NCBI RefSeq assembly: GCF_050320075.1
Contig: NZ_CP190018.1
Strand: one strand, 5' to 3'
Length of the DNA: 64,000 nt
Origin: Escherichia coli
Lineage (GTDB): Bacteria; Pseudomonadota; Gammaproteobacteria; Enterobacterales; Enterobacteriaceae
The position numbers and the translations under genes were made by a program. The notes under the pieces were generated by a model. That model had not been told where the DNA came from and made no database searches. It saw nothing but the letters and a program-made list of their open reading frames with translations. Positions 48,906 through 54,965 of the stretch are shown piece by piece; positions within the stretch are counted from its first letter, which is position 1, and every line of letters begins with the position of its first letter.

Positions 48906-49642
48906 TGTTTTTTGGACTCCCTCATTATAATTACTGGTATTAACCAGCATGTGTAATCCCGGATTGGGACCCTGCACAGGCTCGGAGACTTTCTGCTGTC
49001 AGGTTACTTTATCGTTACGTATTACTATCACCGACTTTATTTATTCTGGTGATTCAGACGATCACCTTATGTCGATTCGTACTGTGTCTCCCCTGTCGAG
49101 ACACATTATTCTTTCGCGACGCTCTTTAATTGTTAATTATTCTCATTACCAATAAAGAATCGTCTGGCGGTTGCCCGGAAAGTACCAAATGCGGTTCTTA
49201 CTCGCCAATACATTTTGCAAAATTGTTAAGCAATTCTCTTTTATTGACCGTATCAGAATCTATAGCTTGCATCCATGTCTTAACAAACATCTTTTAATTC
49301 AATCAAATAGAGATTGGTTAAGCATGTCTCTCTTTTCTGATTACAGTTCCAGTAGTGAAATGCACAATAATTTAACAATTGATTATTATTTAGCACTTTC
49401 CTCTACCAAAGGCAGTGGAATTACTAATATCATTTCAATTATTCTTCAGCAAGCCCAGGATTATGATGTGGCGAAAATAACATGATGGTGAGGAGAAGCA
49501 GTTAAGGAAATCCTTATAACCAACTGTAATTTGAGAAGAATATTTTCACCCATTCCTTTTGCTTTTGATAACTGCGCGGGAACAAAGTAAAAATAATGAC
49601 GAAGTAAACGGAGCATGACAGCTCCGTTTCATTTGAAAGGAA

Positions 49643-50290
49643 TTAATTAAGCAGGCCGGGGAAAATCCCCTTAATACCAGTAACGATAAATTCAATCCCC
49701 AATGCCATCAGCAATAGCCCCATAATACGCGTGATCACGTTGATGCCGGTTTGGCGTAAAACCCGTACCAGCCACGGTGCCATGCGGAACAATCCCCAGC
49801 AACATAAAGCGAACAATGCAATAGCCACAAAGAAACCAAACAGATAGCTAATGCTGTGATAACGCGTACCCCAGACGATGGTAGAACTGATCGCCCCTGG
49901 CCCCGCCATCAACGGCAACGCCAGTGGCACCACACCAATGCTTTCACGTACCGCGGTTTCTGATTTTTCTTGCTTGTTCTGTTTATCCTCGCCAAGCTTG
50001 CCGCTGATCATCGACATCGCTATCGTCACCACCAGGATGCCCCCGGCGATACGGAACGAATCAATTGATATACCAAAAAGTTGCAGAATCGTGTCGCCGA
50101 GAAAAAGCGAGATCCACAAGATAATGGCCACAGACAGGTTGGCTGTAAGGTTAGTTTTGTTTCGCGCTGCCGCTGTCTGATAACTGGTCATGCTGATAAA
50201 GACGGGAATAATCCCTACCGGGTTGACCAGCGCAAATAACCCGATGAAAAATTTGAAGTAAACGGGAAAATCAAAAAGGGTCTGAATCAC
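49643..50290 (-). CDS. ychE: MarC-family inner membrane protein YchE, 215 aa
   Basis: 215 aa, six predicted TM helices. Confidence 0.8.
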   Translation of the reverse strand: MIQTLFDFPVYFKFFIGLFALVNPVGIIPVFISMTSYQTAAARNKTNLTANLSVAIILWISLFLGDTILQLFGISIDSFRIAGGILVVTIAMSMISGKLGEDKQNKQEKSETAVRESIGVVPLALPLMAGPGAISSTIVWGTRYHSISYLFGFFVAIALFALCCWGLFRMAPWLVRVLRQTGINVITRIMGLLLMALGIEFIVTGIKGIFPGLLN

Positions 50291-50627
50291 GGTTAGCTCC
50301 GAAGCAAAAGCCGGATAATGTTAGCCATAAATAAGGTTAAAAAGACGCGCTGACAATACGCCTTTTGACAGCATTTTTCACCTCCTAACTACTTAAAATT
50401 GCTATCATTCGTTATTGTTATCTGGTTGTGCAAAACATGATAATGTAGCCAACAAATCATACTACAATTTATTAACTGTTAGCTATAATGGCGAAAAGCG
50501 ATGCTGAAAGGTGTCAGCTTTGCAAAAATTTGATTTGGATCACGTAATCAGTACCCAGAAGTGAGTAATCTTGCTTACGCCACCTGGAAGTGACGCATTA
50601 GAGATAATAACTCTAATGTTTAAACTC

Positions 50628-50740
50628 TTTTAGTAAATCACAGTGAGTGTGAGCGCGAGTAAGCTTTTGATTTTCATCGGTTAAGCAAATCATCACCGCA
50701 CTGACTATACTCTCGTATTCGAGCAGATGATTTACTAAAA
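50628..50740 (+). promoter_or_regulatory. Long-range inverted repeat in the adhE 5' leader
   Basis: tttagtaaatca (50628..50640) pairs with tgatttactaaa (50728..50740); the downstream arm ends about 14 nt before the adhE Shine-Dalgarno. Confidence 0.4.
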
Positions 50741-50766
50741 AAGTTTAACATTATCAGGAGAGCATT

Positions 50767-53442
50767 ATGGCTGTTACTAATGTCGCTGAACTTAACGCAC
50801 TCGTAGAGCGTGTAAAAAAAGCCCAGCGTGAATATGCCAGTTTCACTCAAGAGCAAGTAGACAAAATCTTCCGCGCCGCCGCTCTGGCTGCCGCAGATGC
50901 TCGAATCCCACTCGCGAAAATGGCCGTTGCCGAATCCGGCATGGGTATCGTCGAAGATAAAGTGATCAAAAACCACTTTGCTTCTGAATATATCTACAAC
51001 GCCTATAAAGATGAAAAAACCTGTGGTGTTCTGTCTGAAGACGACACTTTTGGTACCATCACTATCGCTGAACCAATCGGTATTATTTGCGGTATCGTTC
51101 CGACCACTAACCCGACTTCAACTGCTATCTTCAAATCGCTGATCAGCCTGAAGACCCGTAACGCCATTATCTTCTCCCCGCACCCACGTGCAAAAGATGC
51201 AACCAACAAAGCAGCTGATATCGTTCTGCAGGCTGCTATCGCTGCCGGTGCTCCGAAAGATCTGATCGGCTGGATCGATCAACCTTCGGTTGAACTGTCT
51301 AACGCACTGATGCACCACCCAGACATCAACCTGATCCTCGCGACTGGTGGTCCGGGCATGGTTAAAGCCGCATACAGCTCCGGTAAACCAGCTATCGGTG
51401 TAGGCGCGGGTAACACGCCTGTTGTTATCGATGAAACTGCTGATATCAAACGTGCAGTTGCATCTGTGCTGATGTCCAAAACCTTCGACAACGGCGTAAT
51501 CTGTGCTTCTGAACAGTCTGTTGTTGTTGTTGACTCTGTTTATGACGCAGTACGTGAACGTTTCGCAACCCATGGCGGCTATCTGTTGCAGGGTAAAGAG
51601 CTGAAAGCTGTTCAGGACGTTATCCTGAAAAACGGTGCGCTGAACGCGGCTATCGTTGGTCAGCCAGCCTATAAAATTGCTGAACTGGCAGGCTTCTCTG
51701 TACCAGAAAACACCAAGATTCTGATCGGTGAAGTGACCGTTGTTGATGAAAGCGAACCGTTCGCACATGAAAAACTGTCCCCGACTCTGGCAATGTACCG
51801 CGCTAAAGATTTCGAAGACGCGGTAGAAAAAGCAGAGAAACTGGTAGCTATGGGCGGTATCGGTCATACCTCTTGCCTGTACACTGACCAGGATAACCAA
51901 CCGGCTCGCGTTTCTTACTTCGGTCAGAAAATGAAAACGGCTCGTATCCTGATTAACACCCCGGCTTCTCAGGGTGGTATCGGTGACCTGTATAACTTCA
52001 AACTCGCACCTTCCCTGACTCTGGGTTGTGGTTCCTGGGGTGGTAACTCCATCTCTGAAAACGTTGGTCCGAAACACCTGATCAACAAGAAAACCGTTGC
52101 TAAGCGAGCTGAAAACATGTTGTGGCACAAACTTCCGAAATCTATCTACTTCCGCCGTGGCTCCCTGCCAATCGCGCTGGATGAAGTGATTACTGATGGC
52201 CACAAACGTGCGCTCATCGTGACTGACCGCTTCCTGTTCAACAATGGTTATGCTGATCAGATCACTTCCGTACTGAAAGCAGCAGGCGTTGAAACTGAAG
52301 TCTTCTTCGAAGTAGAAGCTGACCCGACCCTGAGCATCGTTCGTAAAGGTGCAGAACTGGCAAACTCCTTCAAACCAGACGTGATTATCGCGCTGGGTGG
52401 TGGTTCCCCGATGGACGCCGCGAAGATCATGTGGGTCATGTACGAACATCCGGAAACTCACTTCGAAGAACTGGCGCTGCGCTTTATGGATATCCGTAAA
52501 CGTATCTACAAGTTCCCGAAAATGGGCGTGAAAGCGAAAATGATCGCTGTCACCACCACTTCTGGTACAGGTTCTGAAGTCACTCCGTTTGCGGTTGTAA
52601 CTGACGACGCTACTGGTCAGAAATATCCGCTGGCAGACTATGCGCTGACCCCGGATATGGCGATTGTCGATGCCAACCTGGTTATGGACATGCCGAAGTC
52701 CCTGTGTGCTTTCGGTGGTCTGGACGCAGTAACTCACGCCATGGAAGCTTATGTTTCTGTACTGGCATCTGAGTTCTCTGATGGTCAGGCTCTGCAGGCA
52801 CTGAAACTGCTGAAAGAATATCTGCCAGCGTCCTACCACGAAGGGTCTAAAAATCCGGTAGCGCGTGAACGTGTTCACAGTGCAGCAACTATCGCGGGTA
52901 TCGCGTTTGCGAACGCCTTCCTGGGTGTATGTCACTCAATGGCGCACAAACTGGGTTCCCAGTTCCATATTCCGCACGGACTGGCAAACGCCCTGCTGAT
53001 TTGTAACGTTATTCGCTACAACGCGAACGACAACCCGACCAAGCAGACTGCATTCAGCCAGTATGACCGTCCGCAAGCTCGCCGTCGTTATGCTGAAATT
53101 GCTGACCACCTGGGTCTGAGCGCACCGGGCGACCGTACTGCTGCTAAGATCGAAAAACTGCTGGCATGGCTGGAAACGCTGAAAGCTGAACTGGGTATTC
53201 CGAAATCTATCCGTGAAGCTGGCGTTCAGGAAGCAGACTTCCTGGCGAATGTGGATAAACTGTCTGAAGATGCATTCGATGACCAGTGCACCGGCGCTAA
53301 CCCGCGTTACCCACTGATCTCCGAGCTGAAACAGATTCTGCTGGATACCTACTACGGTCGTGATTATGTAGAAGGTGAAACTGCAGCGAAAAAAGAAGCC
53401 GCTCCGGCTAAAGCTGAGAAAAAAGCGAAGAAATCCGCTTAA
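50767..53442 (+). CDS. adhE: Bifunctional acetaldehyde-CoA / alcohol dehydrogenase, 891 aa
   Basis: 891 aa; N-terminal aldehyde dehydrogenase and C-terminal Fe-ADH domains; N-terminus [20 protein letters not shown]. Confidence 0.95.
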
Positions 53443-53744
53443 TCAGTAGCGCTGTCTGGCAACATAAACGGTCCCTTCTGGGGCCGTTTTTTTGTTTTAC
53501 CCAAAGCAACTTTCCCATAAACCGACAGCATTTGCCTTCATCATATTTACGGCGATGTATAACGCCTACACACAGCGATATTGTACTTTACAGGTCACAA
53601 GTCAATGTCACTGTAAAAGCGCTCTGTGAGGGGTATAGTGGCGTTAAAGAACTGTCGAGAAGGGTATATACACCGGATGAAGTGAGTAAAACGAACTGAC
53701 AGGATAAAAGCGCCCTGCTCACCCTGTCAGTAAAGAAATTCTTA

Positions 53745-54362
53745 TTAATCGTGGCGATGCCTTTCCTGAATAGCCGTTAATGAGCCGACTTCTAACGCTT
53801 CTTTATAGTGTTTACGGCATACAGAAACGTAGCGTTCATTACCACCAATAACCACCTGCTCACCTTCGTTATAAGGTCTGCCTGCTTGATCAAGACGCAG
53901 CACCATGCTTGCTTTGCGGCCACAAAAACAGATGGTTTTTAATTCAACCAGTTTGTCGGACCATGCCAGTAAGTATTGGCTGCCAATAAATAACTCACCT
54001 CGAAAATCGGTACGTAAACCATAACAAAGTACGGGTATATCGAGTTGATCGACAACCTCCGATAATTCATATACTTGTTGTCTGGTTAAAAACTGGCATT
54101 CATCAACCAGTACGCAATGAATTGCCTGCTGTTCATGTTCCGCACGAATCTCATCAAATAATGATGAATTTTGGTTAAATAATTTTGCAGGCGATGACAA
54201 ACCTATACGCGAGCTGACTTTCCCGGCACCAAAGCGATCATCAATTTCTGCCGTATATACGACAGTGCGCATGCCGCGTTCCTGGTAATTGTATGAAGAT
54301 TGCAACAATGCTGTAGACTTACCCGCATTCATTGCGGAATAGTAGAAATATAGCTGTGCCAT
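53745..54362 (-). CDS. tdk: Thymidine kinase, 205 aa
   Basis: P-loop SAMNAGKST and C-terminal zinc-ribbon cysteines; 205 aa. Confidence 0.9.
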
Positions 54363-54965
54363 CAGCCACAGGCCCTCAATGATATGAATTAAAGTTGGCT
54401 GGAGTTTATCATAATTCGTCAGTTTTTCAGCTCAACAGTATGCACAGAAGTGGTATATGCGTTCTCCCTTACGAAGCCTTGCATAATCCTTCTGAGCTAT
54501 CATTACAACTGCCTCGCTTGTTATAAGCGGGTAAATGACTGCTGGTAACTATTCACAATCTTTAACCTGTTGCGCAAGTAATAGCCCTCTGTTGACCTCC
54601 TGGAGATAGTGCAATACTAAGTCCCTGCTCTTATTGCGACTGTTCTACTTTTCATCATTCGCTTAATAGGGAATTCTCGTAAACACGACTAATACAGAAG
54701 ACTGAAAGGTCGTCAGCCTACGATAATCTCCCCATAAAATGTGACATGAATCAGGAAGTTTTAACCTCACGTGCTGCGAAATCATCGGCGCAAATAGGGC
54801 TATATGCCGCGTCTTTTCTGGCTAATTTTATGAAAAGATATTTATTGGCGGCACAAAATAAAGAACAATTTTGAATTCCTTACATTCCTGGCTATTGCAC
54901 AACTGAATTTAAGGCTCTATTATTACCTCAACAAACCACCCCAATATAAGTTTGAGATTACTACA

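Follow-up and report, generated by a model that had tools for sequence, protein, structure and literature searches.

AdhE is the key fermentative enzyme of enterobacteria, and the leader of its mRNA is a classic example of expression that depends on RNase III. The enzyme is reported to be needed for adhE expression because it releases an occluded ribosome-binding site (Aristarkhov 1996, as cited in later papers). Paired RNase III sites have been described in the adhE leader, upstream of a site for RNase G, and cleavage by the first enzyme primes the second (Romero 2014). The RNase G cut shortens the leader to 18 nt, and rng mutants accumulate upstream-cleaved adhE species (Clarke 2014).

Several other RNAs are handled in a comparable manner. 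In the leader hairpins of pnp and rnc and at the RNase III sites upstream of eno, the RNase III cut yields a monophosphorylated product, which is then attacked by RNase E or RNase G. Whereas processing only destabilises the pnp and rnc messages, for adhE there are also reports that it switches on translation of one form of the transcript. The lambda cIII and T7 early mRNAs resemble adhE in that RNase III likewise raises translation by altering the structure of the leader; however, these are phage RNAs of other architectures, and in adhE the stimulated form is the long, Escherichia-specific −292 transcript only.

The leader examined here is the same locus and the same RNA as in the model of ribosome-binding-site (RBS) occlusion of E. 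coli adhE (Aristarkhov 1996; Membrillo-Hernandez & Lin 1999). It lies in a stretch of 64,000 nucleotides of E. coli DNA (contig NZ_CP190018.1), hereafter the window, to which all positions refer; features are on the plus strand unless stated otherwise, and negative numbers without further reference count back from the adhE start codon. We find that an inverted repeat in this leader forms a helix that is functional and conserved, yet is an already described element of adhE. Our results refine the known mechanism, including a conserved promoter inside the helix, and bring no new one. They set apart two things that are often merged, namely a conserved helix that serves as a processing platform and Escherichia-specific 5′ segments that are predicted to cover the AUG and the Shine-Dalgarno sequence (SD).

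An inverted repeat in the adhE leader

A reading of this DNA based on its letters alone, below called the sequence-only reading, had proposed that two 13-nt arms in the 476 bp upstream of adhE can pair across about 90 nt. These arms are present with small corrections: 50628–50640 and 50728–50740 are perfectly complementary over 13 nt, and within them tttagtaaatca occupies 50629–50640 and its perfect complement tgatttactaaa 50728–50739. An ungapped repeat search extends the inverted repeat to 21 nt with 95% complementarity. Its 5′ arm comprises 50620–50640 (−147 to −127) and its 3′ arm 50728–50748 (−39 to −19), both defined by repeat search, folding and covariation. The sole mismatch in the 21-bp helix is C50627·A50741. 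The helix is AU-rich, with only three G-C or C-G pairs, and at 21 bp with one mismatch it exceeds 20 bp, or about two helical turns; if three further pairs past a bulge are counted, it reaches 23 bp. The 87 nt between the arms (50641–50727) are branched and, except for an internal promoter, poorly conserved in both sequence and length.

Two ways of lengthening the helix were rejected. In the in-register extension, the bases of 50615–50619 and 50749–50753 do not pair, and the extension seen in the minimum-free-energy (MFE) structure of the short fold requires a bulged U50621. In full-length transcripts the latter gives way to a small hairpin directly 5′ of the helix, found by repeat search and folding, with arms at 50596–50606 and 50608–50618.

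The repeat is not readily produced by chance. Among 2000 dinucleotide-preserving shuffles of 50291–50800, none contained an inverted repeat that reached 21 nt with at most one mismatch, the maximum being 16; perfect inverted repeats of at least 13 nt, the size originally proposed, occurred seven times. Together with the folding and conservation described below, this confirms the repeat as a real, conserved 21-bp RNA helix of the E. coli adhE leader.

The upstream region indeed measures 476 bp (50291–50766) when counted from the end of the ychE open reading frame, but a small annotated gene lies within it: ychT, which encodes 17 amino acids (MLSKGVLSARLFNLIYG) on the minus strand at 50321–50374, as in K-12 (b4771). 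The SD, AGGAGAG, starts at 50756 (50756–50762, core AGGAG 50756–50760) rather than at about 50754. The distance to the SD is 15 nt from the end of the 13-nt core and 7 nt from the end of the 21-nt 3′ arm, which leaves the SD outside the helix. The adhE start codon ATG, assigned from the sequence and the open reading frame, is at 50767–50769. Compared with K-12 MG1655, the leader has no indels and a single difference (50678, C/A), so that a K-12 position x converts to window position 50767 − (x − 1298121); in U00096.3, the 5′ arm corresponds to 1298248–1298268 and the 3′ arm to 1298140–1298160.

Upstream promoters and the transcripts that carry the repeat

The table of transcription start sites (TSSs) of Romero 2014 lists 1297533(−), flagged as known, which is −189 or window position 50578; this is the start of promoter P2, which has a conserved −10 element, TAATCT, at 50566–50571. 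Both arms of the repeat lie downstream of this start and hence within a mapped transcript. A conserved FNR-type site, TTGATttggATCAC (50530–50543, no strand assigned), has the form TTGAT-N4-ATCAC, close to the FNR consensus TTGAT-N4-ATCAA, and is centred at −41.5 of the P2 start. A second site, GCTGAAAGGTGTCAGC (50503–50518, no strand assigned), is of Cra type and invariant in 26 species; it has reportedly been assigned to Cra (Mikulskis 1997). These two DNA sites (50503–50543) are better conserved than the −292 promoter region.

The adhE starts given in the literature are −292 and −188; −292 is window position 50475, with TACAAT at 50463–50468 upstream. The −189 and −292 transcripts both carry the repeat. 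The −292 region, including 50480–50490, is not conserved outside Escherichia, and the classic −292 start is absent from two genome-wide TSS data sets (Romero 2014, Kim 2012). The former reports a class II TSS at −351 (1297695(−) in U00096.2, window position 50416).

Conservation of the helix

For comparison we collected 80 adhE loci from Enterobacterales, Aeromonas, Vibrionaceae and one betaproteobacterium. Covariation was counted on a MAFFT alignment of 57 Enterobacterales leaders, which was not fitted to the structure. Standard pairs fill 83.9% of the cells of the helix, compared with 39–55% when the partners are slid by one to three columns. Changes on both sides of a pair were found in 12 of the 21 pairs and 60 cells, as against 7.5 and 22.9 in shuffled alignments, and none of 500 shuffles reached the observed values; in the slid controls, only four to seven pairs changed on both sides. 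The helix thus shows the compensatory changes of a conserved cis-regulatory RNA structure. Typical compensations are AGUAAAU/AUUUACU, AGUCAAU/AUUGACU, AGGCAAU/AUUGCC and AGCCAAU/AUUGGCU, and exchanges of A-U for G-U are frequent, which fits pairing in RNA of the sense strand. When each leader was folded on its own, at least 12 homologous pairs had a probability above 0.5 in 46 of the 57 species. The sequence UUUACUAAAA(G/A)AGUUUAA of the 3′ arm is nearly invariant in the 57 Enterobacterales.

A homologous helix, alike in architecture and core sequence, is found in Aeromonas and Vibrionaceae. The duplex energies in Vibrionaceae are mostly no better than those of shuffled sequences, because the sequence there is AU-rich. 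Consensus folding depended on the scoring used. With default scoring, RNAalifold returned no consensus pairs on the 57-sequence MAFFT alignment, on its gap-filtered versions or on the arms only; the reasons are that AU pairs stack weakly, that about 16% of the cells are non-pairing and that the Photorhabdus and Moellerella rows are misaligned. With RIBOSUM scoring on the arms of 49 rows it recovered the helix. A search of 49500–54500 with cmscan (E ≤ 1) found no Rfam family at the locus, only a chance snoRNA match that scored 18 bits, the gathering score being 65. The comparison shows the helix to be under purifying and compensatory selection throughout the bacterial order.

Three further observations were made on this set of loci. 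The single-stranded sequence that leads from the 3′ arm up to the ATG, 50742–50766 (AGUUUAACAUUAUCAGGAGAGCAUU), which holds the RNase G site, is almost invariant across Enterobacterales, beyond what pairing needs. A second contig of Phytobacter massiliensis (L055) carries a divergent adhE paralogue, 91% over residues 9–200, that does not have this leader. In several Vibrio loci (L069, L071, L072, L075 and L078), a TATACT lies directly 5′ of the 5′ arm, at about −130 to −110 (CCUGAAAUAAUAUACUCAGCC-UUGAAAGC...), so that the mRNA of these species may begin with the helix.

Processing by RNase III and RNase G

The 18-nt processed leader places the RNase G cut between A50748 and C50749 (−19A/−18C), at the foot of the 3′ arm and thus at the 3′ base of the helix (Clarke 2014). 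The context of this site, UUUAA/CAUUAUC (50744–50755), is AU-rich and conserved. The RNase G site reportedly lies at −19A/−18C, with which the bases A50748 and C50749 agree, and the segment from −145 to −125 together with a stem containing a bubble is said to be necessary for RNase G-dependent regulation. We take that segment to be 50622–50642, which coincides with the 5′ arm, and the bubble to be C50627·A50741. The position of the cut at 50748/50749 thus agrees with the described RNase G system of adhE, from which we know of no difference (Ito 2013; Clarke 2014).

The link to RNase III made by the sequence-only reading holds: the helix is the sole duplex of RNase III size in the leader, where the literature places paired sites. 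The remaining leader helices, as found by repeat search and folding, have 5–11 bp, none being near 20 bp. Since no other duplex of the leader is long enough, we assign the RNase III cuts to the two arms, and by this elimination the published sites probably lie in this particular helix. In Table S1 of Gordon 2017, position 1298235 has a coverage of 30 reads when rnc is mutated, against 0 and 1 in the two wild-type replicates. It corresponds to window position 50653 (−114), inside the hairpin; the signal is weak and sits at the 30-read detection threshold. Overall, the most fitting interpretation of the repeat is that it is the RNase III/RNase G processing element already known from this leader.

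We consider it likely that the following model of processing at the core helix describes the adhE leader as a whole. Transcripts from the upstream promoters (−189 and, in E. coli, −292) would carry both arms and fold the helix, which would be the double-stranded RNase III substrate of the leader. Cuts in both arms would release all of the 5′ sequence and leave a short, 5′-monophosphorylated leader. In the long −292 transcript, cleavage would take away the 5′ pairing partners of the AUG and the SD, and would in this way activate translation. In all processed transcripts, the monophosphate end would prime RNase G at −19/−18, at the 3′ foot of the helix, and the RNase G cut would generate the 18-nt leader and inactivate the mRNA. 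Transcripts that start at −48, from the conserved promoter in the loop, would do so without the 5′ arm and bypass this pathway, a bypass whose physiological weight we infer.

An unlikely alternative makes the helix a structural determinant that is recognised directly by RNase G or a stabilising factor, and moves the RNase III cuts to another place, such as the stacked outer helices of the −292 transcript. The RNase G site does adjoin the helix, and an internal mismatch is present in 42 of 53 species, clustered at positions that are mostly homologous to 50627 or 50631. The other helices of the leader, however, are below the size of an RNase III substrate, conservation extends to the helix but not to the −292 region, and direct recognition is at odds with the finding that RNase III cleavage primes RNase G (Romero 2014).

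Accessibility of the translation initiation region

As the sequence-only reading had anticipated, the arms are paired in both the MFE and the centroid structure of 50600–50780; the same holds for 50579–50800 and 50475–50800, and the fold z-scores of the three segments range from −3.1 to −3.4. In the ensembles of the two long transcripts (−189 and −292), the core pairs have probabilities of 0.87–1.00. The helix ends at 50748, however, and includes neither the SD core (50756–50760) nor the AUG (50767–50769); neither element is paired inside the repeat. In the ensemble of the −189 transcript, in which the helix forms with a probability of about 1, the AUG is unpaired with a probability of 0.91 and the SD with 0.52. 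This accessibility is about that of leaders after cleavage in the 3′ arm or at −18, the SD of the processed leaders being unpaired with a probability of 0.57–0.59.

The situation is different in the −292 transcript. Here the segment 50480–50490 is predicted to pair with 50763–50773 (p 0.85–0.99) and thereby to engage the AUG, and a CCUGG segment at 50583–50587 is predicted, in this transcript only, to pair with UCAGG at 50754–50758, which includes part of the SD (p 0.83–0.92). The AUG is unpaired with a probability of only 0.01 in the −292 transcript compared with 0.99 once the 3′ arm is cut. The predicted occlusion of AUG and SD is thus confined to the −292 transcript. This matches the published observation that only the −292 transcript reportedly needs RNase III for translation. 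In the modelled structure, the repeat makes up the long middle part of a rod, and the initiation region is covered at the base of the rod by other segments. Compared with the RBS-occlusion model, the predicted contacts are therefore those of 50480–50490 with the AUG and of 50583–50587 with the SD, and not those of the reported repeat, on whose long duplex they sit.

These results bear on the proposed role of the repeat in sequestering the translation initiation region, in which case the helix itself would cover that region and RNase III would have to open it. The 3′ arm is only 7 nt from the SD and within the upstream part of the 30S footprint, and CUCUUU in the 5′ arm (50625–50630) could pair with GGAGAG of the SD, a pairing that alifold draws for 24 rows of Enterobacteriaceae. 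In the E. coli ensemble this pairing is negligible, however, and the distal arm pairs have probabilities of 0.94–1.0. With the SD and AUG outside the helix, an AUG that is 91% unpaired in the −189 transcript although the helix is fully formed, and an SD about as accessible there as in processed leaders, we regard direct sequestration as quite improbable, a little more so than direct recognition by RNase G. The −188 transcript is also said to be translated without a need for RNase III. The sequence-only reading is thus partly supported: its connection with RNase III stands, but not its claim of an initiation region sequestered by the helix itself.

A promoter inside the loop

The loop enclosed by the arms contains a proximal promoter. 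Its extended −10 region, TGACTATACT, occupies 50702–50711, with the hexamer TATACT at 50706–50711 preceded by a C at −13 (CTATACT, 50705–50711). TG(A/T)CTATACT is nearly invariant at 50702–50711 in the alignment of the 57 Enterobacterales, and C-TATA(C/A)T is found between −56 and −68 in about 50 of the 80 loci. Aeromonas has it in the form CTATAAT; Vibrionaceae and most Morganellaceae of the set lack it. The C at −13 resembles that of sigma-S-preferred promoters, and on the basis of this base the sequence suggests a preference of the internal promoter for sigma-S.

A TSS lies at the expected place. The table of Kim 2012 gives a single adhE start, 1297392(−), with a 48-nt untranslated region and the upstream sequence ...CTGACTATACTCTCGTATT, which corresponds to 50719, 7 nt past the hexamer. 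The signal consists of five reads in TEX-treated RNA from exponential M9-glucose cultures (Kim 2012), and the −48 start is not in the TSS table of Romero 2014. A transcript that starts here does not contain the 5′ arm, so the helix cannot form.

With the core-helix processing model as a basis, the helix and its nested promoter might constitute a promoter-dependent switch of mRNA fate that is conserved from Aeromonas to E. coli. Transcripts from the FNR-type promoter would be committed to RNase III, RNase G and rapid shut-off, whereas −48 transcripts would keep their triphosphate and escape. We put this forward tentatively and consider it rather doubtful.

The position of the arms around the internal promoter also allows for a reading at the level of DNA, in which they are inverted operators (about −99 to −79 and +10 to +30 of the TSS at 50719) for a looping regulator. 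The conserved −10 element is indeed flanked by the arms, the centres of which are about 108 bp apart. The arms co-vary for complementarity and keep no fixed motif, however, and many of the changes from A-U to G-U preserve pairing only in RNA of the sense strand; no regulator with such a motif was identified, and we consider operators highly improbable. Least probable of all is an RNase III substrate formed by sense and antisense RNA instead of the intramolecular helix: a promoter-like match on the minus strand (GTAACA-16-GATAAT, 50777..50750) would give rise to antisense RNA over the leader, but no forward-strand (antisense) TSS is listed between 1292716 and 1298694 (Romero 2014), and conserved intramolecular complementarity would not be needed.

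The locus within E. coli

The spacer between ychE and adhE is present in 5423 of 5426 complete E. coli genomes, and the 157 nt that span the helix have an identity of at least 99% in 5217 of 5424 records. Six nucleotides, GTGAGC (50649–50654), are deleted from the GTGAGTGTGAGC stretch of the loop in an E. coli O121 strain (NZ_CP119441.1), in which both arms are intact. Both E. coli polymorphisms examined, this deletion and the difference from K-12 at 50678, map to the loop and neither to the arms. Thirteen matches to the adhE leader (query 50291–50800) are on records labelled as plasmids, and some genomes contain up to three copies.
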